In this document: one piece after another, positions 13,728 through 25,250 of the stretch | How positions within the stretch are numbered: the first letter of the stretch is position 1 | How the letters are laid out: every line of letters begins with the position of its first letter | Assembly: GCA_013289265.1 (NCBI GenBank) | Contig: JABDAH010000007.1 | Coordinates: 1,745 to 65,744, forward strand | Direction of reading: 5' to 3' | DNA length: 64,000 nucleotides | Source of the DNA: Alphaproteobacteria bacterium | Lineage (GTDB): Bacteria; Pseudomonadota; Alphaproteobacteria; UBA9219 | Notes under the pieces: generated by a model | The model's database searches: none | What the model was told of the DNA's origin: nothing | What the model saw: only the letters and a program-made list of their open reading frames with translations | Made by a program: the position numbers and the translations under genes

Positions 13728-14411
13728 TTACGCGTGTCCTGCACCAGCGGCGGCGCGTTCCAGCATGCCAAGCCATTTTTCAGGCGGCATCTGGCCATAA
13801 GGACCTTTATCCGAACGCCAGAATTTGACCAATTGCGGAAACTGATTGGCGTCGCCCTTGCGGCCGCGAACCATCTGTTTATCAAGCGGCATCAGGCGCA
13901 CGCCGTCCAATTTAATAATGGCCTGCTTTATTTCGTCGTCAGCCAAGGATTCATGCAGGATAGTTGCTAATAGCAATGGATCATCGCTGCCGAGGCGCTT
14001 CTTGGCATCTGTGCGGCGCGACATCAGCGCATCGAAAGCACGCGTCGCCAGCTCCACAATTTGCCCTTCATCACTGCGGGCAACATAAATGGCTCGGACA
14101 ATGTGATTAAGCTCCGCCTGCGCAATTTCCGGCAGCCAGATCAGAACACCGGAGCCCATCATCCCAGCGCGTTCCAGCATGACGCATTGTTCGCAGAAAG
14201 TGCAGCTGGTAACGAGGTCTTGATCAGCGGTATCGCAAGCAATGACACGCTGATACTGCTCCGACCGGAAACCACAAAAACGGCAGGTATAATCATCCCG
14301 TTTCAGGGTTTTTTCGATTTGGGATTTGGTGAGTTGGGGAGAGCTTTTAGAAGCTCCCTTCTCGGCGTCAGGGTTTCGCCTGACGCCGAGAGTAAGCGGG
14401 AGGAAGGTCAC
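13728..14411 (-). CDS. icmJ: IcmJ/DotN-family zinc-binding T4BSS protein
   Basis: ORF track, 227 aa (GTG start). Sequence KRDDYTCRFCGFRSEQYQ...LVTSCTFCEQCVMLE...GVLIWLPEIAQAELNHIVRAIY closely mirrors the Cys motifs and the LIYLPELTQAELN segment I recall from Legionella DotN. Confidence 0.85.
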   Translation of the reverse strand: MTFLPLTLGVRRNPDAEKGASKSSPQLTKSQIEKTLKRDDYTCRFCGFRSEQYQRVIACDTADQDLVTSCTFCEQCVMLERAGMMGSGVLIWLPEIAQAELNHIVRAIYVARSDEGQIVELATRAFDALMSRRTDAKKRLGSDDPLLLATILHESLADDEIKQAIIKLDGVRLMPLDKQMVRGRKGDANQFPQLVKFWRSDKGPYGQMPPEKWLGMLERAAAGAGHA

Positions 14412-14442
14412 ATTATTCCATTCAACTTAAACAATCACGCGC

Positions 14443-14823
14443 TTAGAACGTGAAGGTCGAAAGACCACCAGAACCTTGCAGTGTGTTGTTGGCAGTGCTG
14501 TTCAGAACATGCATCAGTGAAGGCATCGCGAGCAAAGCAGCGCCTGCGCCTGTACGAGCAAAGCCGTGCGACATGCTGCCTTGGGTTGGGTTTTCAGCAT
14601 GATGCTTGAACTTCATCACGCCGCCGATGACCAGAACGCCGCCGATAACATAGCAAGCGAAGCTGAGCAATTGCAGGACTGGCGTAAAGACGCTGTCACG
14701 GCTGGCCGTAACGCTACTTGATAATTGCGCGAAGGCATCACCTGAGATGGGCGCTGCTGCTGCAATGACGGCTGCCATCAACAGACCTTGAACCCACAGA
14801 TTTGTAAGATTTGCTTTTTTCAT
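14443..14823 (-). CDS. icmD: IcmD/DotP-like small inner-membrane T4BSS protein
   Basis: ORF track, 126 aa. Strong RBS GGAGGAGGAA, a signal peptide, then one TM-loop-TM unit: ACYVIGGVLVIGGVMKFKHHAENPTQGSMSHGFARTGAGAALLAM. It sits between icmC and icmJ. Confidence 0.7.
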   Translation of the reverse strand: MKKANLTNLWVQGLLMAAVIAAAAPISGDAFAQLSSSVTASRDSVFTPVLQLLSFACYVIGGVLVIGGVMKFKHHAENPTQGSMSHGFARTGAGAALLAMPSLMHVLNSTANNTLQGSGGLSTFTF

Positions 14824-15004
14824 AGTTTCCTCCTCCTGTTTTGAATTCGATTAAACTTTTAAAGGCAATTTACCTATTAACAAATTTACCGGCAAAATGT
14901 TAACGAGGCCTTAAATCACCCACCACTTTTCTTACTTTTTGCAGGTTACCATAAATTCAAAACCCCTGCAATTACTTGCACCTTATAGCGCTATGTCCTT
15001 GTTT

Positions 15005-16033
15005 TTAGGTCACAAATTGTGTCCCCATAGTCAAGTCTACAACTTCCATAAAAAGATAGATATTCATGGCCATGACACCACCAATTATATGGGTCACGCC
15101 TTGGGCAAAAGTCACCTGCCCAACACCTTCGACGGCGTTACGGATTATATTCCAGCCACGCACAAAACTGATGAAGCCAACCAGCTGGAAGAATGTCAGG
15201 GCCGCTTTCATGGCGACCTTGAAGTGCGTGGTATCACCCAACTTGTTGACAGCTGTCCATTGCAAACTTTCAAAAGCGAGCATGCCTCCATTAACATGTG
15301 CGCCCATAACGCTGGCCATGACTACATCGACGCTCTGGCCAATAACAACCAGAGCGGTGCCGATAATTAAATTTGAAACAATATGGCTAATTGAGTTGGT
15401 GCGGGCATCATTGCCGTATTTGGCGGCTTTCATCAGGCCACGAATAATAAGGAAAACACCTAACACAACGGCTACGGCCGATACTAAAGTCGTAAGCGGT
15501 TGCTGTATATTCCCCACAAAGTTTGCCAACATGATATCCAGCGGCACGGCCTGCCCTTGCGCCGCCACAGTACCGTCCATCATATCAACGCAGTTGCCTA
15601 GAAATGAGCCGCCGGCATCAATCTTAAGGGTATTAGCGAAAGTGATACTGTCGCCGAAATTTTTGCCGAGAAATAATGTCTGGACCAACGTGCCGATAAC
15701 ATGTGGTAGAGCGCCGAGGAAAGCGCCCATCGTTAAAAGCGCTACCGTTTTATGATGAGGATGCTGCTGTGGACTTTCGTGATGCATGCGCAAATGCATG
15801 AGTCCTTGAATAACAAAAACGGCACCCGCAACATAAGCTACCCCATAAAACACCTTAAAAAAGGGCGTCATATTGTCAGCGACGGTACAGAACATTTCAC
15901 CCATTGTGGTCGCAGCCATCGCTGAGTGGGTGTTCAAAACCGTCAGTAAAAAAGTTGCAGAAAAGAAGGCCAGGGCACCGATGAGGCGCTGGCGGCTAAT
16001 GCCGCAGAAAAGGCGTGAAAAAAGCAACTTCAT
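15005..16033 (-). CDS. icmC: IcmC/DotE-like polytopic membrane protein with three IcmD-like hairpin units
   Basis: ORF track, 342 aa. Signal peptide, then three repeats of hydrophobic helix-G[LW]M/N-polar loop-helix: ..VFVIQGLMHLRMHHESPQ.., ..VFLIIRGLMKAAKYGNDA.., ..FISFVRGWNIIRNAVEGV... It sits between icmG and icmD. Confidence 0.65.
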   Translation of the reverse strand: MKLLFSRLFCGISRQRLIGALAFFSATFLLTVLNTHSAMAATTMGEMFCTVADNMTPFFKVFYGVAYVAGAVFVIQGLMHLRMHHESPQQHPHHKTVALLTMGAFLGALPHVIGTLVQTLFLGKNFGDSITFANTLKIDAGGSFLGNCVDMMDGTVAAQGQAVPLDIMLANFVGNIQQPLTTLVSAVAVVLGVFLIIRGLMKAAKYGNDARTNSISHIVSNLIIGTALVVIGQSVDVVMASVMGAHVNGGMLAFESLQWTAVNKLGDTTHFKVAMKAALTFFQLVGFISFVRGWNIIRNAVEGVGQVTFAQGVTHIIGGVMAMNIYLFMEVVDLTMGTQFVT

Positions 16034-16161
16034 AAAGCCTCAAATAGGTCGGGTCGTAAAAATTTGCCTTAATTTAATTAACTCTAGCCCATTCTGCCAA
16101 GGAAAAGCTTAAAAAGCTTTTAATTTTTTAGGTTTCTTGCGTCCCGTCAAAGGCTTATAGC

Positions 16162-17349
16162 CTATCTAATGGTGCCTTGAGAGCCTTCAACCACCCAAAT
16201 ATCGCCTGTTTGATGAATAGCGCGGACGGCACCTACGCCCGGAAGGCTGTCACCAACCCTCACCCGGCGCAATTCTGGTGTGAAAGAATCCTGCGCAACC
16301 CAGGCCTCATCCGGGCTTGCAGCCCTTAGAACCCAGCTAGGCGCCATAATCGCAGGTTTTTCCTGCGGCAACATCGCCATTCTATGGGACGTTTTCTTGA
16401 CAACAGTCTTATGGCTGTAATGCGATTTATAAGAAGTGTGGTGGGTTTTGCCGACATAGGCTTTATGAGGGGCCGCATCAAAACCAGCATTGGCATCTAT
16501 AGAACTTGCAGGCGCTGCATGCTGAACCTGCATCAATTTCTGTTCGATTTTGCTGAGCCTGTCATCCAAAGCCGGGCTGGAACCGGTATCAGCAGAAGCC
16601 GTTCGGGAGGCAAGCGCGGCATTCACTTGCGTTAGTTGCTGAGTGGCCTGAGCCAGGGATTTTTGTAAATCCTCAACACGATTGGAAAGTGCGACAATAC
16701 GCGCATCTTCTGTCGAGCTTGCTTGCGGCGCAATTGATGAAGGCGGCGGCACAATAGCAGGTGCTGTTTGAACGGGCGCCGGTGCAGCGACCGCAACTGG
16801 CGCAGGCAGTGGTGCTGGCATTGCCATCGGAGCAGCAGCAGGTTTGGGTGGCAGTGCCACTGCTGTGGCATCTGGCGTTGCAGAAGCTGGAGCAGCTGAA
16901 ATGGGTTTCGCAGGTATATCAGCAACGGGTGCCAAGGCTGTGGTTGGCGCGACATCTGAGACAGGCGCTTTATTGGCATTATCCGTTGGAGCAGGCGCTG
17001 ATGGTTGCACAGTTTCAGGCGGCGTTGCATCTGCTGTTTGTGTTGAGAGCGGCGGTACTTCAGCGATCGGCATCTGCGCATCGGATGAACCACCGAATTG
17101 CCAGTAAAGCACAGCGCCCAAAATCAGCAGACCACCGACACCGGCTGCGATAGGAATCAGCATCGATTTTTTGGCCGCAACAGTTTGTTCGGTGCCCGTC
17201 TCGTCATGCGCATCTGCTTCTTCGGAAACCGTAGCGGATTCTTCGCCGACGTGAAAATCGTCAACTGGCGGCTCACCGCCCCAGTTTTCAGTTTCTGTCG
17301 CGATCTGTTCCTGATCTGCTGTCCCTTCGGACTCGTATTTGTCAGTCAT
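16162..17349 (-). CDS. icmG: IcmG/DotF-like bitopic T4BSS protein
   Basis: ORF track, 395 aa. Acidic N-terminus, one TM (LIPIAAGVGGLLILGAVLYWQF), an Ala/Pro-rich spacer, coiled-coil segments, and a C-terminal beta domain PDEAWVAQDSF..VRVGDSLPGVGAVRAIHQTGDIWVVEGSQGTI. The call rests on position plus that C-terminal pattern. Confidence 0.65.
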   Translation of the reverse strand: MTDKYESEGTADQEQIATETENWGGEPPVDDFHVGEESATVSEEADAHDETGTEQTVAAKKSMLIPIAAGVGGLLILGAVLYWQFGGSSDAQMPIAEVPPLSTQTADATPPETVQPSAPAPTDNANKAPVSDVAPTTALAPVADIPAKPISAAPASATPDATAVALPPKPAAAPMAMPAPLPAPVAVAAPAPVQTAPAIVPPPSSIAPQASSTEDARIVALSNRVEDLQKSLAQATQQLTQVNAALASRTASADTGSSPALDDRLSKIEQKLMQVQHAAPASSIDANAGFDAAPHKAYVGKTHHTSYKSHYSHKTVVKKTSHRMAMLPQEKPAIMAPSWVLRAASPDEAWVAQDSFTPELRRVRVGDSLPGVGAVRAIHQTGDIWVVEGSQGTIR

Positions 17350-17378
17350 TGTCCTGCTCCTGCGCTGATGGACGCGAA

Positions 17379-18938
17379 TTAGTGAATGTAAGTTGTGCCA
17401 TAACCTCCGGGAGCTGTTCCCGGCATGGTTGAATAAGGTGAGACCGTATTGGATTGCGGATTGGCATAGTTAGGATAAGGAACATTTGGCGTTTGGGGTG
17501 CGCCGTAGCCAGCTACATTGGTGCCCGGATAAGCGCCCGCCAGATAAGGGTTAGCTGCGCCTGTCGCACCCATTCCTAAACCGGGATAGCTTCCCAATCC
17601 AGGAGCAGCGCCGTAAGGATAGGCCTGCTGCTGTTGCTGCTGGATTTGCTGAACGGTTTGATCAACCACAGACGTCGTGAAAAACAGGCCCATTGGTGTG
17701 CTGGCGGCAACACGTACCAAAGGTTTGGTCTGGTTAGCCTGATTCTGGAAGAACTGGCTCATCGTTTGCGCGCCCTGACCTAAACCTTGAAACAGGCCTT
17801 GACGATAACCTTCCTGGGATTGCGAAATAATGGTCGCTTGTCCATTCGTCGTCGTTGTGGAATTACCCGTTCCCAATGCTTGGCCAAAGCCTTGAAGGAA
17901 ACCAGCGGCTGCCGGAAGAATGACACGCGTCAGATAACGCTGGTCAACCTCGGTTGCCATACCGCCCAAAGTCGTATCAGGGTTAAGCGCGATAGCATTG
18001 ATGGGGTAATCCTTGCCCTTGAAGTGCACCAGCGTGAATTGCAGGACGAGGTAATCGGCATAACCGTTTGCGACCTGGAACTGCCCCACTGCGCGCGCGC
18101 CTGAAAAAGGGCCAGACACGATCTGCGCCAGAATAGGGCCCGGCACATCCGAATTCGCTTCGGTCAAAAGCTGCGCATAGCTAACGGTACCCGCAGGCAG
18201 AAGAACTTTTGCAGGTTCCTGCGCAGCCGCACCATTTGCGCCGGAAGCAGTTGAGCCATCTGCCGATGCGCCGGCACGTTTCTCCGCGGCCGCTTTCAGA
18301 TCTTCAGGCTTGGTGACGATTACTGATTTCACGCCTGCAGGGGTCCAGCCATCAATAAGTTGGGACATCTGGCGTTGCATCGCCATGGCAAGCGTATCAT
18401 CAAACTGTTCCGCCTGCGCTGCGCGGGCGGGGGCCTGTTGAATCAACTGTTGTTGCTGGATTTGCTGCTTCTGGGTTTGCTGCTGATCCTGCTTCAGATG
18501 TTCGATTTCTGCCTTCAGTTCGTTAAGCGGATCGCCTTTTTTCGCATCGCCATTCAGAGCATTCATGTCGGTGCTTTGGCCGATAGGCGTCGGCAAGGCG
18601 CTGCCGCCTGTTTGCATCGCCTGATTTTCACGGTCGCGGTTAGCCATGTCGGTTTGCTGCTGCATATAAGGTGATGCAGGGCCGCCCGGCGCGCCGTTAA
18701 TGGTCGGCGGGTTAACAAGGCGCGATGTATTTTTCGATGCCGAACTGCCGCCAAAGAAACTCATCCCCGCAGCGACAATTGCAGCCACCGCTGTCATCAG
18801 CACAACTAGTTTGAATAGGGGGCGCGAACGCCAGGCTTCCGCCAGATTGGCGCGGGCACCCGGTGGCTGATGCGTTAATTCTTCGGACTGATTAAAATCC
18901 TGCTGATCAAAATCATCGTTATTTGTCATGATCATCAT
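17379..18938 (-). CDS. icmE: IcmE/DotG-like T4BSS core protein (VirB10/TrbI-like C-terminal domain)
   Basis: ORF track 17379..18971. The start is ambiguous, with ATGs at residues 12, 13 and 15 inside the icmK 3' end. It has a TM (LFKLVVLMTAVAAIVAAGMSFF), Q-rich coiled coil, LLPAGTVSYAQLLTEANSDVPGPILAQIVSGPFSGARAVGQFQV...INAIALNPDT..GMATEVDQRY, then a Q/Y/P/G-rich tail. Confidence 0.8.
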   Translation of the reverse strand: MMIMTNNDDFDQQDFNQSEELTHQPPGARANLAEAWRSRPLFKLVVLMTAVAAIVAAGMSFFGGSSASKNTSRLVNPPTINGAPGGPASPYMQQQTDMANRDRENQAMQTGGSALPTPIGQSTDMNALNGDAKKGDPLNELKAEIEHLKQDQQQTQKQQIQQQQLIQQAPARAAQAEQFDDTLAMAMQRQMSQLIDGWTPAGVKSVIVTKPEDLKAAAEKRAGASADGSTASGANGAAAQEPAKVLLPAGTVSYAQLLTEANSDVPGPILAQIVSGPFSGARAVGQFQVANGYADYLVLQFTLVHFKGKDYPINAIALNPDTTLGGMATEVDQRYLTRVILPAAAGFLQGFGQALGTGNSTTTTNGQATIISQSQEGYRQGLFQGLGQGAQTMSQFFQNQANQTKPLVRVAASTPMGLFFTTSVVDQTVQQIQQQQQQAYPYGAAPGLGSYPGLGMGATGAANPYLAGAYPGTNVAGYGAPQTPNVPYPNYANPQSNTVSPYSTMPGTAPGGYGTTYIH

Positions 18939-20094
18939 CCCGCAGCAGCTGCGCCCGAACCATGGCGCCATTATCAGACATCAAAAGTACCGGCGCATCG
19001 CCGATATCATAAACATTCGTGCCATCGCCGGACGACACGCTGGAATTCCACGATGGCGACAGCAAGGTCAAAGGCGTGCGCACCATAACACGGTCGCCGA
19101 TCATCCAGGCTTTGGTACGTGCATCGACGCCGCTAACTTTCATTTGCTTGGCTCCACTCGGCGGCGCGTTTTCCAGAACCAGCATCATGCTTTCGCTGCC
19201 TGCTTCGAGGCGCGGATTTTGTATGAGCGGCGCTTTCGCGCCCGGTCCCATTTTACCGATGCGGGCATCGTAACGCAGATCAACATTGGGGCCACCCGCA
19301 GACAGCCGGAAAATAACCGGTGTCGGCAGATCTTTCAGAAGCACGGAGAGATTGCCATTACCAACGCGGCTTAAAGGCATGATGCGAACGACATGCGAAC
19401 CGGAAGATGTGGGAGAAACTTCAAAATTACCGCCCACACCTACATCGAGGATAGGCCAAGGCTCGCCAGTAGCATCGACCATATTGACGGTCGTGACATA
19501 ACCAGCGGCCAGATTAAGTTGCGGCGGCGTAACGCCGGGATCCAGCGACAAGGTCGCGATCCGCACTTCGCCCTTGGGCGTGCCACTTGAAGGCGACTGC
19601 GATGCATCCTGCGTCTGTTCCAGTTTATGCATGAATTCGTGGATCTGGTCCGGCGAAAGCGGCAGCAATCCTGCGGAAGCACGGCCATAGGATTTTTCGT
19701 TATGCTCCAGTTCCCGACGATGCTGATCTTGCTCTATCTGCGCTTGCGCCTGCATGGCAGCTTGCTCAGCTTGTACCGATAGCTGGTTCGGGTCATTGCT
19801 GAAAGCGGTCGCTGGTGGCGGCACGGGAAGTTTGATACCCGCCGTCGCATCGGAAGTAATAGAAGATGTCGCCGGTTGCACGATTTGCGGCGGTGCGGCT
19901 TGCGGCGTGATGGCGCCATTACCGCTTGGCGAAGCAGTAGTTGTCGTTGCCACAGGCATTGCGTAAGGATTAGCCGCCGCATTCGCCGGAGCCGATTGCT
20001 GGGCAAAACCTGCGTGCGGCACAAGAAGGGCAGCACCCAACATGCCTGCCTGCAGCAAGAAACGGGTTTTTAAATGGATCGCACTTTCTTTCAA
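18919..20094 (-). CDS. icmK: IcmK/DotH-like periplasmic/outer-membrane T4BSS core protein
   Basis: ORF track, 391 aa (TTG start). Signal peptide ..LLVPHAGFA|QQ, an A/P/T-rich linker, LLPLSPDQIHEFMHKLE, and a beta-rich C-half: LNLAAGYVTTVNMVDATGEPWPILDVGVGGNFEV..NLSVLLKDLPTPVIFRL. Confidence 0.8.
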   Translation of the reverse strand: MKESAIHLKTRFLLQAGMLGAALLVPHAGFAQQSAPANAAANPYAMPVATTTTASPSGNGAITPQAAPPQIVQPATSSITSDATAGIKLPVPPPATAFSNDPNQLSVQAEQAAMQAQAQIEQDQHRRELEHNEKSYGRASAGLLPLSPDQIHEFMHKLEQTQDASQSPSSGTPKGEVRIATLSLDPGVTPPQLNLAAGYVTTVNMVDATGEPWPILDVGVGGNFEVSPTSSGSHVVRIMPLSRVGNGNLSVLLKDLPTPVIFRLSAGGPNVDLRYDARIGKMGPGAKAPLIQNPRLEAGSESMMLVLENAPPSGAKQMKVSGVDARTKAWMIGDRVMVRTPLTLLSPSWNSSVSSGDGTNVYDIGDAPVLLMSDNGAMVRAQLLRDDDHDK

Positions 20095-20252
20095 AACACT
20101 TTACCTCGAATAAGGAGCTTTAAATTGAACAAGTCTCGAATCAGCCCGCCCGGTCCCCCAACCTACCTCTTTCAGCAAATCTAGGTTAACAGCAAGTTTA
20201 CATATAACCAACTTCACAGCAAAGCACAGCCTCAAAGAAAGCCCTTCGGCTT

Positions 20253-20987
20253 TTAATTATTTATTGTCCAGGTATCAATGCCGATGCCGGAGGGGTTTTG
20301 TTCCGGTTTTACGCGGATAATCGTCAAATCGATGACCGCTTTTTCGTGCCGGTTGACATTATTATTGGTGGCATAGGTCATAATGACGGGCATTTGCACC
20401 CGCCATTGGTAAATCTGCTTTTCGTTAACACCTTGCATTACAATCACGGGTGTATTCGAGGGTACCGTCGTCAAAACCAGCTGGCTGTTCTTAAACGCCT
20501 CGCCGATTTTCTGCCGATCAAAGGCTTTGGCAAAGGCGTCCCAGCCTTCCGGCGTAAAGCGGGGGCGCTGGGCTTTTAACTTCTGCTCGTAATCACCGAA
20601 ACCGACCGTCATGATTTCCGTCACACTGGTGGTGGCCCAGGACAAAATCGCGCGGTTGGTCATATTCGGCATCGTCAAAGGCACCAGCTGTACCAATTCG
20701 CTTTTATTGTTTCTCAAATAATATTGATAAACCGGCGCAGCAAATGGTGACGCCAGTAACAGCAGGAACGACAAAATCGCTATTGCTATTGACTGACTGG
20801 TTACGCGTCGCACAAGCCTTTGATGCTTTAAGCTTTCAGCTTGCTCATCCAGCACGCTGTCCACCAGCACCGGATCTTGCAGAAATGAAAAATACGATTG
20901 GGTAGAGCTCACCAAAGGCGGTGACTTTTTTTTCGCAGAGTTCGATGCCTTAGCAGCGGCATTTGAAGATGAAGGCTTGGCTATCAT
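20253..20987 (-). CDS. Second IcmL/DotI-family protein (full-length tandem paralogue)
   Basis: ORF track 20253..21146. I start it at the internal ATG (residue 54, MIAKPSS), which overlaps the icmL stop as ATGA. It has a TM (IAIAILSFLLLLASPF) and a periplasmic domain alignable to icmL (RFTPEGWDAFAKAF..LVLTTVPS..IIRVKPEQNPSGIGIDTW against NFTPTGWESFTKAL..LVVTTEIN..IVRVSTLQNPDGISIEQW). Confidence 0.75.
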   Translation of the reverse strand: MIAKPSSSNAAAKASNSAKKKSPPLVSSTQSYFSFLQDPVLVDSVLDEQAESLKHQRLVRRVTSQSIAIAILSFLLLLASPFAAPVYQYYLRNNKSELVQLVPLTMPNMTNRAILSWATTSVTEIMTVGFGDYEQKLKAQRPRFTPEGWDAFAKAFDRQKIGEAFKNSQLVLTTVPSNTPVIVMQGVNEKQIYQWRVQMPVIMTYATNNNVNRHEKAVIDLTIIRVKPEQNPSGIGIDTWTINN

Positions 20988-21622
20988 TTGCCGTTCGGGT
21001 TCAAGGCAACCCACTGCTCGATGCTGATGCCGTCCGGATTTTGCAATGTTGAAACACGAACAATGCGCAAGAACAGATTTGTCATGATCGGTTGCGGAGC
21101 TTCGTTGCCATCGAAACGAATGGTGATGGGGAATTTGAGATCCCATGTGTAGATGCCGTTGCGAACATCGGCATTGGTGATTTCCGGCGCCGAATTAATT
21201 TCAGTTGTTACAACCAGTTTGCGCGCTTCAATCGCTTCGATGATCTTGGAATCTTTCAGGGCCTTGGTGAAGCTTTCCCAGCCTGTCGGCGTGAAATTAA
21301 CGGAGACCTGCTGCAAACGTTCGCGGTAATCCTTGTAATCAAACCGCATGACATTTTGCGCTGTGGCCGCAGCCCAGGCGACAACTTCCGCCTGACTGCG
21401 ATAGGGCTCGTTCATCGGTACGATATTGATAATGCGGCCATCAGCAGTGGTTGCGAAATAAACCTGCCGCGTCTGCATCGTCAAAAGCAGGCTGACGAGA
21501 CCTGCAATCAAAAGCGCAATGACAATGGCCTGAATAATACTGACGCGCAGAAGCAGGCGATAACCATCGCGGTAAAAAGCGTTGCGGTTAAGAACCGTTG
21601 CGACTGCATCCTTTAAAGCCAT
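20984..21622 (-). CDS. icmL: IcmL/DotI (TraM-like) inner-membrane T4BSS protein
   Basis: ORF track, 212 aa. RBS AGGAAG. Sequence includes VLNRNAFYRDGYRLLLRV, a TM, QVYFATTADGRIINIVPMNEP and NFTPTGWESF. It closely resembles the Legionella IcmL strings I recall (NEFYRDNYR, ATTADGRII). Confidence 0.88.
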   Translation of the reverse strand: MALKDAVATVLNRNAFYRDGYRLLLRVSIIQAIVIALLIAGLVSLLLTMQTRQVYFATTADGRIINIVPMNEPYRSQAEVVAWAAATAQNVMRFDYKDYRERLQQVSVNFTPTGWESFTKALKDSKIIEAIEARKLVVTTEINSAPEITNADVRNGIYTWDLKFPITIRFDGNEAPQPIMTNLFLRIVRVSTLQNPDGISIEQWVALNPNGK

Positions 21623-21637
21623 GAATACTTCCTTTGA

Positions 21638-22111
21638 CTAAACCGGTACGTGGAGTTCCGGCAATGCACTGGCCGATTCATATTCTGATGATCCCTTGCA
21701 GCTTGGGCAAATACGGTTTTGCCGTCCCGCTGATTCAAACTTGTTGAGACACATAAGGCAAATGCGCGGCGATGTCGTAACGACAGTATCCGTAGCTTCC
21801 CGCGTAACACGGTTTGGCATACGTTGCGGCATAAAAGGCGATTCACGATTCTCCGTCTGACGGCGACCGGGCTTACGGCCCGGGGCCGAGCGTCGCGGCA
21901 AACCCAGCCTTGCGGCGCGCGTCATAATCGCCGGAATTGAACGGTTGAGCGCTTCGGCGATCATTTGCGGTGTATTATTTTGCAGCCACATATCGCGCAG
22001 GATTTTATCCTGATCCTGCCAGCTTGGCCCCAAGGCTAGCCCTCCGCCGGTCCCTGTTGCGGTGGCAGTGGCCTCGGCTTCATCCTGGGGCAATAAGTCC
22101 GATGAACTCAC
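21638..22111 (-). CDS. GcrA-like HTH protein with a C-terminal Cys4 zinc ribbon
   Basis: ORF track, 157 aa (GTG start, GGAG upstream). WQDQDKILRDMWLQNNTPQMIAEALNRSIPAIMTRAARLGLPRR matches the GcrA N-terminal pattern (W..e....L..lW....s..qIA..L.....rnAv.gk..RLGL..R). The C-terminus reads RICLMCLNKF..RICPSCK. Its stop lies 15 nt upstream of the icmL start. Confidence 0.65.
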   Translation of the reverse strand: MSSSDLLPQDEAEATATATGTGGGLALGPSWQDQDKILRDMWLQNNTPQMIAEALNRSIPAIMTRAARLGLPRRSAPGRKPGRRQTENRESPFMPQRMPNRVTREATDTVVTTSPRICLMCLNKFESAGRQNRICPSCKGSSEYESASALPELHVPV

Positions 22112-22413
22112 TTCTTGTGACTCCTGAATGTTTTTTTCTTAACACGCTCAATTATGCAACTAATTCTACTTGATAGCCGGCCAATGAAGGACAAACCCTT
22201 CAAAGGCTTGTGAAACTAATTCCCTTAAGCAGTTAGCCCTGAAATCCTCAAACTTTTCTTAACATTTTTAGAAAGTTTGTAGGCATTTTTGACTTAAGCC
22301 ACAAAATCAGAGAATAATTATTCAAAATCAAATAGATAGATATTTTTATTTTATAATTATTTCTTTTTGAGAACAATAATGAGAATCATTTGCATAACTG
22401 GGCGGGACAAATT
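22112..22413. promoter_or_regulatory. AT-rich divergent control region between the icm operon and the 22414..25602 operon
   Basis: About 300 nt without ORFs, visibly AT-rich (e.g. ATAGATAGATATTTTTATTTTATAATTATTTCTTTTT). An 11-bp direct repeat TTTTCTTAACA occurs at ~22134 and ~22254. CTTAAG palindromes occur at ~22224 and ~22282. Confidence 0.6.
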
Positions 22414-22872
22414 ATGGTGGTGACGTTTTCACCTCCAAATGATGCCGCCATGTCACTTACCTCGCCACCCTCTCTTCAAATCAATCCGGCGAATAACAAG
22501 CGTTTTGCCCGGCTAATGTTGAAGAATATCTCGCCCGAAGTTCGGCGAGCAGTGGAAGCTCTCTGGGAAAATTATGAAGCACTTGACCTCATCGTAATAA
22601 CGACATCGGAGGCTGCCGCTGACGACCTTCTCGCCGCCATGCCAGTGATCGAAGGTGTGGAAGATGAAATCCGGCAAATGGTCACAGAGCTTGTTGATGA
22701 CCTGCGCACCAACTTTAAAGACGCCGCCGATATGCCGCTGCGCCTGCGCTTTGCCTATCAGAATGAAGATGAATTGATCGACCAGGTCCTGCCGCGCTCC
22801 GCAGCAAGGCTCGTTGTTATGCCGATTGACCAAGATATCAGCCTTCACACCAACATTAAGGAAGACAACTGA
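22414..22872 (+). CDS. Hypothetical acidic protein (152 aa)
   Basis: ORF track 22390..22872 (TTG). The internal ATG at residue 9 has GGGA upstream. The protein is Asp/Glu-rich and looks helical. Its stop overlaps the next start (TGATG). No recognisable family. Confidence 0.55.
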   Translation: MVVTFSPPNDAAMSLTSPPSLQINPANNKRFARLMLKNISPEVRRAVEALWENYEALDLIVITTSEAAADDLLAAMPVIEGVEDEIRQMVTELVDDLRTNFKDAADMPLRLRFAYQNEDELIDQVLPRSAARLVVMPIDQDISLHTNIKEDN

Positions 22873-25250
22873 TGCCCAGCACGAACTCGATGACCGCTTT
22901 TGATGCGGATAATTTTGCGGCGGCGCAACAGGCCAATCGCATCATGCTGGTCGCTGAAATTCCGTCGCAGGCCGATATCGAAGAAGCACAACGGGATGCT
23001 CATAACGCTGGCAATGATGGCTTCGATGAAGCAGGGTTGGAAACTTACAAGCAAACAACGAGTAATATTCTAGCGCATCTAAAAAGCATCAATCAGGCGA
23101 TTGCAGATTCTTACCAATCCTTCGAAGTCGGCGCGACTATTACCAACCTGCTGAACTCTACCCGGTCCATGCTGCAAAGCGTCACTCACTATGGCAGCAA
23201 AGTTAGAGATAATAACTCTAGAGAAACGCGCACATTGCGCCAAAGCGCAAACCTGTATGAACAGCAACTGGTAAGAGCCAGCAACAACGCAAGCCTCTCG
23301 CAAAGCACACGCATGGCTTTGCGCGCCAGCCTGCAACAACTGCGCAAAACCAATGTCAGCGGTCCCAATATCCGCGCGGCTATGGTTAATAAAGCGACAC
23401 CACGCGCTTCTATTACAGCACCAACATTAAAGGTAACGGCAAGGACGGTGAATAGCTCTCAACCAGCAGCACCTCAACAAACAGCAAAAGCCACACCTGC
23501 AACAAAGAATATCGCTTCAATACTCGCCGATAAACCTGTAACGCGCACGATAACGGGCATAACTCCAACAATACCTGCCACTGCAATTACCGGAAAAACA
23601 GGCGCCGCCACGACCAGCAAGACCCCTTCTGCGTCAGTTCCTATTCAGGCCGCAAAAGCAGGCGCCTCCATCAGCTTCCTTACTCCCACTACAAAAGAAA
23701 CACGCTCTACTCTCAATGGTTCACCCCTAACACGAGAGACGGGTAAGTTTGCGGCACTTAAATCGGAATTCCCTAAGGCCGTAGATAAATCCACTGCAAC
23801 AGCGACTTCCTTGGCAAAAGCTGAGGCTAAAACACCCACACCCCCAACTGCTGCCAATACCGAAAAAGCAACTACCTCAATAGCCGATTCCAAATCAGCA
23901 CCAAAAGGAACCGCTACTGCTGCAGCCAATGTGGTAGCGGCCAATACAACGACAACACCCGCAACCCAAACTACTACAGCTGCTGTTGTGGCTTCCCTCA
24001 CTGCCGCCGATAAAAGCATCACGACACCTGCTGCGCAAAAACCCGCAATGACTACAGGGCAAGCTGTTGCTGATGTCACCGTCAACCTTACTGCAACAAA
24101 AGCAACAACAGCATCCACAGCGGCTAACCCAGCAACTGTTGTTATGTCAGATGCCAAGGTTATGCCTGTAACCGCACCTATCGCTGCCATTTCAGAAAAA
24201 GCTGCACCGCCTGTCAGCCAACCCGTTTTGGTTGATGTCACTAAAGTAGCCGTCAGCACTGCTGGCGAAAAAAAATCTGCGCCCGTTCAGACAGCCGAAC
24301 GTCCAAGCACTCCAAACATAACCACAATAGATTCAACAAAAATAGGCTCAGCACCAGTAGCCGCTCCTGCGGTTGCAAATCCTACCGTCGTTACCGCTGC
24401 TGCAACCAATCAAGCACTACCTATTGTCTCCACTGACACATCTTCGGATCTGGCCGTTACTCCGGCAAAGGTAGCAACAACTCCTGAGCTAACGACTGTA
24501 AGTTATACAGACGCAGGGAAGCCCGTAGCTCTAACAACGGGAGACACGGCCCCGCCAGTTGTAACAACCAGCGCCCCTCTTATCACAGCCAATCCACTGC
24601 CCGCTGTAGATGGTACAAATGTCGCTCTTCCAACATATACACCGACGCCGCCTGTTGTTGGCCCCCATCCCACCAACGAAACACCTGCACCTTTTGTACC
24701 ATCTACGCCACCAATCACGCCGCAAGTAATCGATAGAGCTCCGGATCCTGTTGTGCTCCCCGCCCCTTCCGTGCCGCTGCAAACTATCGAACAACCCAAG
24801 GCGCTAGAGACCAATAATCCGCCACCAAATCTGCGCGTAGATCCCGAACCCCAACTACCCGTCGCTTCACATGATTCAAATGACTCCAGACAGCCAAACT
24901 TGCTTACAAACCACGAACAGCAGCTTGAGCAGCGTCAAGCCTCCGATACAAAAATGGATTTCCGGGAAACTCGGCAGGACCTCGTGCGGAATGATGTTGG
25001 TCGTTTTGAAGAAGTCAAAACTACAGCCAGCGAGTCACTCCCCGTTGAAGTGCGCCTTGAGAATATCAACTCGGAAATCAAGGCGTTCAAAGCGCTGCAT
25101 GGAGACGATTACAAAAACGTCGAAGGCTACAAAGACCTTATTCAAAAGCGCGAAGAAGTTTTGGACGAAAAGAAGAAAAAGGGAAACGGAGAAGCAGTAC
25201 GTCCTCCTTGTGCCGGTAATTGCAATAAATGTTTAACGCCAACTTGCTGA
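22872..25250 (+). CDS. Large Thr/Ala/Pro-rich low-complexity protein with a helical N-domain and a C-terminal Cys4 motif
   Basis: ORF track, 792 aa. No TM or signal peptide evident. About 470 central residues are T/A/P/V-rich. The C-terminus reads ...KREEVLDEKKKKGNGEAVRPPCAGNCNKCLTPTC. Confidence 0.7.
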   Translation: MPSTNSMTAFDADNFAAAQQANRIMLVAEIPSQADIEEAQRDAHNAGNDGFDEAGLETYKQTTSNILAHLKSINQAIADSYQSFEVGATITNLLNSTRSMLQSVTHYGSKVRDNNSRETRTLRQSANLYEQQLVRASNNASLSQSTRMALRASLQQLRKTNVSGPNIRAAMVNKATPRASITAPTLKVTARTVNSSQPAAPQQTAKATPATKNIASILADKPVTRTITGITPTIPATAITGKTGAATTSKTPSASVPIQAAKAGASISFLTPTTKETRSTLNGSPLTRETGKFAALKSEFPKAVDKSTATATSLAKAEAKTPTPPTAANTEKATTSIADSKSAPKGTATAAANVVAANTTTTPATQTTTAAVVASLTAADKSITTPAAQKPAMTTGQAVADVTVNLTATKATTASTAANPATVVMSDAKVMPVTAPIAAISEKAAPPVSQPVLVDVTKVAVSTAGEKKSAPVQTAERPSTPNITTIDSTKIGSAPVAAPAVANPTVVTAAATNQALPIVSTDTSSDLAVTPAKVATTPELTTVSYTDAGKPVALTTGDTAPPVVTTSAPLITANPLPAVDGTNVALPTYTPTPPVVGPHPTNETPAPFVPSTPPITPQVIDRAPDPVVLPAPSVPLQTIEQPKALETNNPPPNLRVDPEPQLPVASHDSNDSRQPNLLTNHEQQLEQRQASDTKMDFRETRQDLVRNDVGRFEEVKTTASESLPVEVRLENINSEIKAFKALHGDDYKNVEGYKDLIQKREEVLDEKKKKGNGEAVRPPCAGNCNKCLTPTC

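Follow-up and report, generated by a model that had tools for sequence, protein, structure and literature searches.

Type IVB secretion systems (T4BSSs) have been described as the chromosomal Dot/Icm machines of Legionella and Coxiella, as the type I mating-pair formation (MPF-I) apparatus of the IncI1 plasmids R64/ColIb-P9 and of pND6-2, and as the kib system of Pseudomonas putida IsoF, which kills bacteria by contact (PMC9519443). A relative of these systems is encoded in the 64-kb stretch of alphaproteobacterial DNA analysed here (the window). Positions 13728-22111 of its minus strand carry a nine-gene operon, the open reading frames (ORFs) of which are consecutive and tightly packed, as seen in their translations. 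The block is genuine: it encodes an intact half of a Legionella-type (type IVB) protein-injection machine and lies on the chromosome of a Micavibrio-related uncultured clade. An earlier note, made from the window's sequence, had read it as part of a split chromosomal T4BSS of the effector-translocating type, and this reading proved largely correct. The system belongs to the known T4BSS kind but is divergent, with about 33% identity to plasmid DotH homologues.

The gene order icmL-K-E-G-C-D-J of Dot/Icm region II holds in the window as far as icmJ, as the note had stated, and in relatives from the clade icmB follows. DotI, DotH, DotG, DotF, DotN, DotM and DotL are homologous to the Legionella proteins of known structure. 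Furthermore, like the systems of Legionella and Coxiella, that of the clade lies on the chromosome at more than one locus and has no relaxase. However, identity to those systems is only about 20-35%. The clade DotG is half as long, lacks the long repeat region and ends in a low-complexity C-terminal tail, a second full-length DotI stands where Legionella and Coxiella have the short DotJ/IcmM, and DotE is duplicated and fused. In addition, a GcrA-like regulator heads the operon, and DotM and DotL come after IcmB, not before icmN-L. Of IcmS/W/Q/R/T, DotA-D and DotU/IcmF, none was found. The organism is an alphaproteobacterium with no known eukaryotic host.

The IncI1 and pND6-2 systems have counterparts of the clade genes in the same order (TraM, N, O, P, Q, R, T and U, and TrbA and TrbC), and a type IVb pilus cluster like that of R64 is present in two clade relatives. 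Unlike these plasmids, the clade has no relaxase, origin of transfer (oriT) or plasmid backbone, and its block lies amid core genes. DotH is at most 34% identical to any plasmid copy, and DotI and DotG have better scores with their Legionella counterparts than with those of IncI. The kib system likewise lacks conjugative function and serves as a functional model for the predation hypothesis developed below (PMC9519443), but it occupies a low-GC genomic island of 67 kb that also carries an integrase, and its effector-immunity pair has been identified, whereas the clade genes are native, dispersed and clade-wide.

The presence of a T4BSS in this clade had already been visible. Needham et al. (2022) reported in one sentence MacSyFinder pT4SSi matches in seven marine Micavibrionales (PMC9418006). 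These calls, made with a criterion of virB4/icmB plus at least six accessory genes and no relaxase, concern the same system in the same clade; the survey does not deal with its anatomy, its dispersal, lineage-specific genes or a link to predation (PMC9418006). The names 'DotH/IcmK' and 'IcmB' have also been given to genes of related metagenome-assembled genomes (MAGs) by PGAP and IMG. Because of these names and the published survey, the novelty of the present finding is limited, and its interest lies in a putative predation link and in lineage-specific features rather than in the mere presence of a T4BSS. Our literature search found no paper tying Micavibrio predation to a T4BSS.

Parts of the operon

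Pfam, NCBIfam and PDB searches assigned DotI, DotH, DotG and DotN to the families proposed in the earlier note, and all strings and coordinates quoted there are present in the ORF translations. The profile cut-offs were 27.7 bits for PF11393, 27 for DUF6750, 80 for TraQ, 100 for NF038221 and 750 for NF033900. DotI/IcmL (20984-21622; minus strand, as are all nine genes) is a protein of 212 aa with an N-terminal transmembrane (TM) helix and a periplasmic domain. It scores 161.5 bits with PF11393 and 165.6 bits with NF038072, and in PDB it matches Legionella DotI (3wz4, E=1.2e-20) and R64 TraM (E=1.2e-12). The identity given to this gene was correct, but there are two DotI-family genes. The second is a full-length paralogue of 244 aa at 20253-20987 (PF11393, 129.4 bits over profile positions 16-177), and the ATGA overlap at 20984-20987, in which its start lies on the stop of DotI, was read directly from the sequence. 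Both copies are found in all full blocks.

DotH/IcmK (18919-20094, 391 aa) has a signal peptide and corresponds to the outer-membrane core component, with 237 bits to PF12293 and E=5.4e-42 to IcmK of PDB 6x62. It shares 11 nt with DotG/IcmE, the icmK/icmE overlap of the earlier note. DotG (17379-18929, 516 aa as called) consists of an N-terminal TM helix, a Q-rich linker, a VirB10/TrbI domain and a low-complexity G/Y/P/N tail of about 80 aa. It scores 52 bits with PF03743 (TrbI), 161 bits with NF033900 against 78 bits with the IncI TraO profile, and matches Legionella DotG in PDB at E=4.7e-23. The NF033900 score stays below the equivalog cut-off (161 of 750 bits), as the protein lacks the long repeat region of the N-terminus. 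At the other end, the C-terminal 80-90 aa or so (17379-17650) lie 3' of the VirB10/TrbI domain and beyond the end of the alignment with Legionella DotG. Tails of 70-110 aa rich in G/Y/N/P/S/Q occur in the great majority of about 40 orthologues (e.g., in loci L003, L011 and L044 of the relatives described below, but not in L036), frequently with 'YPGTTVNGYG...VPYPNY', and they could be surface-exposed.

The gene at 16162-17349 (395 aa) is the weakest of the assignments. The protein has an acidic N-terminus, one TM helix, an A/P-rich linker, a coiled coil and a small C-terminal beta-domain. As a single sequence it had no match in the structure-database sequence search, but a profile of 40 orthologues matches Legionella DotF (7muc_AF) colinearly at E=3.1e-5. 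A single-sequence model of the last 110 aa reached a predicted local distance difference test score (pLDDT) of 75-89 over the beta-domain. The top two Foldseek matches of this model among 350,542 PDB chains are both DotF chains of 7muc, with a probability of 0.97-0.98 and a target-normalised TM-score of 0.57-0.71, but with E=0.12-0.28. With moderate confidence, this profile match and the model suggest that the protein is DotF/IcmG.

Next comes a polytopic inner-membrane protein of 342 aa like DotE/IcmC and TraQ (15005-16033), which consists of two DUF6750-like halves; PF20535 (DUF6750) matches it with 46.7 bits over two stretches. The TraQ profile NF033883 gives 61.7 bits on residues 168-336, under its cut-off of 80, and the pND6-2 protein in the TraQ position matches orthologues of the 342-aa protein. 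What the note had named IcmC is a duplicated form. The small membrane protein of 126 aa at 14443-14823 is IcmD/DotP-like; its DUF6750 score of 19 bits is weak and under the cut-off, and it clusters with the 342-aa protein family. In position and topology the two proteins fit IcmC/DotE and IcmD/DotP. The last gene of the block is DotN/IcmJ (13728-14411, 227 aa), the zinc-binding subunit of the coupling complex. It matches IcmJ/DotN of PDB 5x1h (E=1.9e-21), 6sz9 and 7ovb (all E~2e-21) with CxxC...CxxC aligned, and with 96.3 bits to NF038221 it falls just short of the cut-off of 100. As the note had stated, its stop is 6 nt from that of a convergent MepK/DUF882 gene.

The first gene of the operon (21638-22111, 157 aa) was counted in the note as a ninth Dot/Icm protein; it is not one, but a GcrA-like protein with a helix-turn-helix and a zinc ribbon, a putative dedicated regulator. 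Its stop is 15 nt upstream of the DotI start, and a gene in the equivalent position is present in 22 relatives. The protein is basic (isoelectric point, pI, 9.2) with an invariant C-terminal CxxC...CxxC zinc ribbon. Pfam GcrA is matched by 21 of the 22 family members (best E=1.4e-6), only over profile positions 3-83 of 155, and the family profile matches Caulobacter crescentus GcrA (7ye1) at E=3.4e-4. One orthologue also carries a weak GcrA flag. The sigma-70-binding half of GcrA is replaced by the Cys4 zinc ribbon. As speculation from this resemblance, transcription of the T4BSS might be tied to a dimorphic cell cycle. Upstream of the operon lies an AT-rich divergent intergenic region of 278 bp (22112-22389), the presumed promoter region. 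Sigma-70-like matches in it are weak, fall on both strands and are no commoner than in shuffled sequence, and promoter and terminator scans gave nothing above shuffled controls.

All nine ORFs are open and show translational coupling, in agreement with the note's statement that they look intact. The ratio of nonsynonymous to synonymous substitution rates (dN/dS) is 0.09-0.24 for DotH, DotG, DotN and DotF against orthologues in L003, L013, L011, L014 and L044, with dS saturated. In composition the block matches the core genes: its GC content is 0.524 against 0.520 in the left flank, and the relative synonymous codon usage (RSCU) of block and core genes correlates with r=0.94, compared with 0.95 between two halves of the core set. 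The block is under purifying selection and compositionally native, neither a recent acquisition nor a relic.

Distribution and dispersal in the clade

DotH has 404 homologues at E<=1e-5. Among the 120 matches listed, identity is 54-84% and all are from metagenomes or MAGs; where named, they are called 'DotH/IcmK family' and belong to an Alphaproteobacteria, Pseudomonadota or Bdellovibrionales bacterium. When a single genome of each species was scanned, 49 loci were obtained, all from MAGs (loci fetched in our scans carry the prefix L). Their titles read Alphaproteobacteria, Proteobacteria/Pseudomonadota, Rhodospirillales, Rhodospirillaceae, Bdellovibrionales bacterium, Micavibrio aeruginosavorus and Micavibrio sp. 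The label 'Bdellovibrionales' arises because NCBI taxonomy files Micavibrio under that order. From the record titles, we take the clade to correspond to the GTDB order Micavibrionales. Sludge, groundwater, biofilm and peat are the sources of the MAGs.

A block of the window type, consisting of the GcrA-like gene, DotI, DotI2, DotH, DotG, DotF, the DotE-like gene, one to four copies of the IcmD-like gene and DotN, is present in 27 of the 49 loci. It is flanked in the relatives by housekeeping genes, e.g., gltX, comEC, lexA, flgE, groEL and parE, and adjoins acnA, as in the window, in L003, L011, L038, L049 and L050 and in L089 from a later metagenome scan. Most of the other 22 loci have only DotH-DotG-DotF, between dnaA and secA (L004-L010, L015-L018, L020-L023, L027, L031); other flanks are found in L012, L019, L024, L048 and L051, of which L048 also has a DotE-like gene. 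The note had placed the block in a lineage where such systems are not the norm. With the same block in 27 of 49 loci and parts of it in all 49, a T4BSS is therefore the norm for this clade, within which the block looks vertically inherited. No relaxase, integrase or replication gene was found in any relative's flank inspected.

The segment from DotE to DotN is plastic (L026/L066:7297-8100; L029:15274-17887; L028, L033, L043, L046, L050). The number of IcmD-like copies varies from one to four, TraX (PF05857) is inserted between DotE and DotN in one lineage, and L029 has a tandem duplication of IcmD-DotN. Beside dnaA-DotH-DotG-DotF in L004 (376-7242) and, at the same positions, in L010 lies a type IVb pilus cluster of the R64/pND6 type, with a TcpQ/PilL-like protein, a PilN secretin lipoprotein, PilO, a 292-aa protein and a PilQ-type T2SSE ATPase; none of these is in the window.

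In more than 20 related loci IcmB comes after DotN, which gives the order L-K-E-G-C-D-J-B. Loci with IcmB directly 3' of DotN include L011, L014, L026, L033, L043, L047, L050, L059, L060, L066, L072, L074-L079 and L089. The order after DotN is IcmB/DotO, DotM, a small TM protein and DotL, usually followed by a family 4 glycosyltransferase (GT4) and Wzy_C. IcmB has about 1000 aa, is so named by NCBI and JGI, and scores 739 bits with the pND6-2 protein in the TraU position. DotM/IcmP matches NF033890 with 169 bits and, for the L073 copy, 6sz9_B at E=6e-24. DotL/IcmO is a coupling ATPase of about 810 aa, with E=3.7e-132 to 6sz9_A (L073 copy) and 370 bits to the TrbC type.

The small single-TM protein is specific to the clade. 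It has 150-226 aa, always stands between DotM and DotL (L052:14512-15192, L054:14411-15037, L059:7730-8179, L066:14380-14901, L073:14312-14806) and has no family match. Its N-terminal domain is conserved, as is the motif 'G(V/I)PLPADEVL.PPP' in its C-terminal part. In several genera a GT4 gene follows 3' of DotL (L052, L054, L059, L060, L066, L073), often with a Wzy_C/O-antigen-ligase-like protein. This linkage may reflect a functional tie to envelope glycans or mere synteny.

The distal half does not always adjoin the block. IcmB-DotM(-x-DotL) forms a free-standing operon amid unrelated core genes in L052, L054, L057, L064 and L073, and IcmB is solitary in L082 and L086. In L086 (10001-12987) it is apparently split by a frameshift at about 12613, which is an assembly error or a pseudogene. 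Block and IcmB operon come from the same MAG in two cases, L029 and L052 in CAYMGM01 and L042 and L057 in JAYRGC01. These pairs from single MAGs therefore reveal the split within one genome directly rather than by inference alone, and the note's proposal of a T4BSS divided over several loci is borne out in these two sister MAGs.

The window itself contains only one half. Essentially every ORF of at least 100 aa was scanned with Pfam or NCBIfam, and no IcmB, DotM, DotL, T2SSE-type ATPase, relaxase or integrase was found in the 64 kb; tblastn with the relatives' IcmB, DotM, DotL and pilus ATPase also gave nothing in the window. Therefore, the note was correct that ATPases, coupling protein, relaxase and integrase are absent from it.

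Exact copies of the window's IcmL are present in Logan run SRR8424010 and, on contig Ga0206891_10095, in JGI metagenome 3300020802. Among the 19 loci that a metagenome scan with IcmB of L011 gave is L073, a 42.6-kb contig (Ga0206891_10034) that shares its metagenome with the window's JGI contig. Its gene order is acnB, a 109-aa ORF, IcmB, DotM, a 164-aa TM protein, DotL, GT4 and Wzy_C, with no DotN upstream. Its GC content is 0.507, compared with 0.504 for the window. The tetranucleotide z-score correlation between L073 and the window, 0.68, is the highest of all loci and equals that between the two halves of the window; this match is weak on its own because other relatives reach 0.63-0.67. 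A shared nearest relative carries more weight. L075, a short contig in which DotN and IcmB are still adjacent, is nearest to the window (DotN 67%, IcmD 69%; DotN at most 59% in other loci) and nearest to L073 (IcmB 89%, DotM 70%; IcmB at most 82% in other full-length loci). As L073 matches the window in composition and in nearest relative, the missing half most likely exists. We think it likely that the window's organism carries its distal half on Ga0206891_10034 and that a fairly recent rearrangement severed the cluster just behind dotN. At the breakpoint, the DotN-IcmB spacer of L075 has no homology to the DNA upstream in L073 or downstream in the window. P0174, P0180, P0212, P0122, P0158, P0202 and P0162 were also considered as the IcmB of the window's organism and were rejected, all being from other samples.

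Proposed function and alternatives

The cultured members of the clade (Micavibrio) are obligate epibiotic predators of Gram-negative bacteria, and a prey bacterium is for this reason the likeliest target of the machine. We propose an ancient, vertically inherited, non-conjugative T4BSS, standard in this clade, that injects into bacterial prey. The genomic part of this proposal, a native, clade-wide, split T4BSS locus, is very probable; bacterial prey as the target, which we choose by analogy with kib and with the habits of Micavibrio, is tentative and taken alone falls somewhat short of even; the statement as a whole is one that we favour on balance. From established knowledge of Dot/Icm systems, DotI and DotI2 would form an inner-membrane platform, and DotH, DotG and DotF the envelope-spanning core and channel. 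DotL-DotM-DotN would recruit protein substrates and IcmB/DotO would energise the machine. On cell contact, substrates would be pushed through the DotG/DotH/DotF channel, so that toxic or lytic effectors would be delivered into the prey at the attachment site, and the GcrA-like protein may couple expression to the predator's cell cycle.

A bolder form of the proposal can be sketched. The T4BSS might be the contact-dependent attack and feeding apparatus of epibiotic alphaproteobacterial predators, switched on through a GcrA paralogue at the transition from attack to attachment, and the two DotI proteins, the DotG tail and the small partner between DotM and DotL might be adaptations for breaching the envelope of bacteria and not that of eukaryotes. 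In this full form we consider it rather unlikely. A conserved and selected Dot/Icm-type machine nevertheless gives a concrete, testable candidate for how Micavibrio-like epibiotic predators kill and drain their prey from outside. In addition, the clade extends chromosomally domesticated T4BSSs well outside Legionellales, and it presents an extreme case in which the genes of one machine are scattered as small modules among housekeeping genes.

For the cultured strain M. aeruginosavorus ARL-13, the gene table contains recognisable DotL and DotM neighbours, although the genome paper excluded a type IV secretion system (PMC3189940). In its expression table (supplementary file 4), GMV_383 is listed as 'icmO' with 2583 bp, despite the stated absence, and the hypothetical genes that come next, GMV_384 (582 bp) and GMV_385 (1215 bp), agree in size with the small TM protein and DotM (PMC3189940). 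Among flagellar genes, the hypothetical GMV_1708 (2994 bp) is as long as IcmB, which makes it a lead by size only (PMC3189940).

Several points weigh against our proposal. The authors of the ARL-13 genome saw no evidence for a type IV secretion system, and the expression indices of GMV_383-385, 1.7-4.3, are low, if non-zero (PMC3189940). Micavibrio is the only genus for which predation is known, and its T4BSS proteins share only 60-65% identity with those of the window. The identity of the clade comes from record titles, and AcnA is undiscriminating (Azospirillum 74-75%, MAGs 80-89%). L073 is tied to the window by circumstantial evidence: the Logan assembly of the matching run does not contain P0125, and at 20 kb the tetranucleotide correlation has little discriminating power. 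We identified no effectors, no immunity genes and no IcmS/IcmW adaptors. DotA, DotB, DotC, DotD and IcmT were found neither in the window nor in any fetched locus, a search that covers loci and not whole genomes; with DotB, DotC, DotD and IcmT of pND6-2 as phmmer queries, the roughly 90 fetched loci yielded only the type IVb pilus ATPases of L004 and L010. To our knowledge, DotA, DotB, DotC, DotD and IcmT are present in every characterised T4BSS.

The serious rival is that the effectors enter a protist or another eukaryotic host, as those of Legionella and Coxiella do, and that the organism is host-associated. All characterised chromosomal Dot/Icm systems with DotL-DotM-DotN act on eukaryotic cells, and DotI, DotG, DotL and DotM of the clade score better against Legionella than against IncI homologues. 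Needham et al. also put the pT4SSi of Micavibrionales with 'relatives of described pathogens' (PMC9418006), and IcmB of L057 and L091 has an ankyrin-repeat and a Sel1-repeat gene in its neighbourhood, both on faint or weak matches. However, no eukaryote-like effector repertoire was seen, and cultured clade members attack bacteria, not eukaryotes (PMC3189940). The habitats of the MAGs carry no host signal, and the window, with tryptophan biosynthesis and a large lipopolysaccharide (LPS)/polysaccharide region, does not have the profile of a reduced symbiont. We judge a eukaryotic target unlikely on this evidence, though it deserves to be kept in view. The earlier note had concluded that the T4BSS would imply a host- or protist-associated lifestyle; given the epibiotic predation of cultured Micavibrio this does not follow, and prey is at least as likely.

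An output other than effector injection is improbable. The machine might take up prey macromolecules or, with the products of the linked GT4 and Wzy genes, assemble an adhesion or surface structure. GT4 and Wzy_C are conserved right after DotL, the low-complexity tail of DotG could reach the cell surface, and effectors have not been identified. On the other hand, no T4BSS is known to import material, the DotL-DotM-DotN coupling complex is a hallmark of substrate export, and the GT4/Wzy linkage may be mere synteny with envelope genes.

It is more doubtful still that the block is a decaying relic whose ATPase half was lost at the break after dotN, leaving non-functional genes. IcmB, DotM and DotL are indeed missing from the 64 kb although they stand 3' of DotN in the nearest relative, L075, and DotA, DotB, DotC and DotD were not found in the window or the fetched loci. 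We reject this reading, since the nine translationally coupled ORFs are intact and under purifying selection at the dN/dS values given above, a matching IcmB-DotM-x-DotL operon is present in the same metagenome, and sister genomes keep the two halves apart and intact. The least probable reading, a conjugative MPF-I (IncI-like) element or a remnant of an integrative and conjugative element serving DNA transfer, has in its favour the IncI counterparts of all genes (TraM, N, O, P, Q, R, T), the R64-like pilus cluster beside DotHGF in two relatives and TraX in one lineage, but was rejected because the window and inspected flanks lack a conjugation module (no relaxase, nickase accessory, integrase or replication gene), GC and RSCU are native, core-gene synteny is conserved across genera, and no plasmid DotH exceeds 34% identity.

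Neighbouring genes

The flanks of the block are as the note had described them (trpBA, accD, a folC-like gene, MucR, DUF1036 and AcnA). To the left lie genes for a MiaB-like protein, acyltransferases, MucR, MlaC, a FolC-like protein, AccD, TrpA/TrpB, an OmpR-type regulator and MepK. The OmpR-type protein, between trpB and mepK, has a winged helix and no detected receiver domain. To the right are a NifU-like protein, DUF1036, AcnA and OmpA. On the breakpoint side, where relatives have IcmB, the segment 10814-13128 carries an ORF of 135 aa and an A/T/P-rich ORF of 374 aa without significant family match; it was found only in the window's own contigs.

Divergently from the operon, at 22414-25250 of the plus strand, an acidic 152-aa protein (pI 4.4) is coupled through TGATG to an A/T/P-rich 792-aa protein, which lacks a signal peptide and has a Cys-rich end, 'CAGNCNKCLTPTC'. 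The pair has no family match, is present only in the closest relatives (L003) and lies in a region with strong GC and AT skew. When PHROGs, Pfam and NCBIfam were searched with the 135-, 374-, 152- and 792-aa ORFs, the only match was a sub-threshold one to NCBIfam for the 374-aa ORF (16 of 256 bits). The layout of the 152-aa/792-aa pair resembles that of a chaperone-substrate pair; the AlphaFold model of the 152-aa protein has a pLDDT of 40 and is unusable. The two genes are the only effector-immunity candidate.

Farther to the right, 29000-64000 is a long region of LPS/O-antigen or capsule-type biosynthesis with a GC content of 0.46-0.49, compared with 0.50-0.55 elsewhere in the window. It encodes GDP-mannose dehydratase, epimerases, glycosyltransferases of families GT1, GT2 and GT4, methyltransferases, UDP-galactopyranose mutase, an ABC-2 exporter and heptose-pathway proteins.

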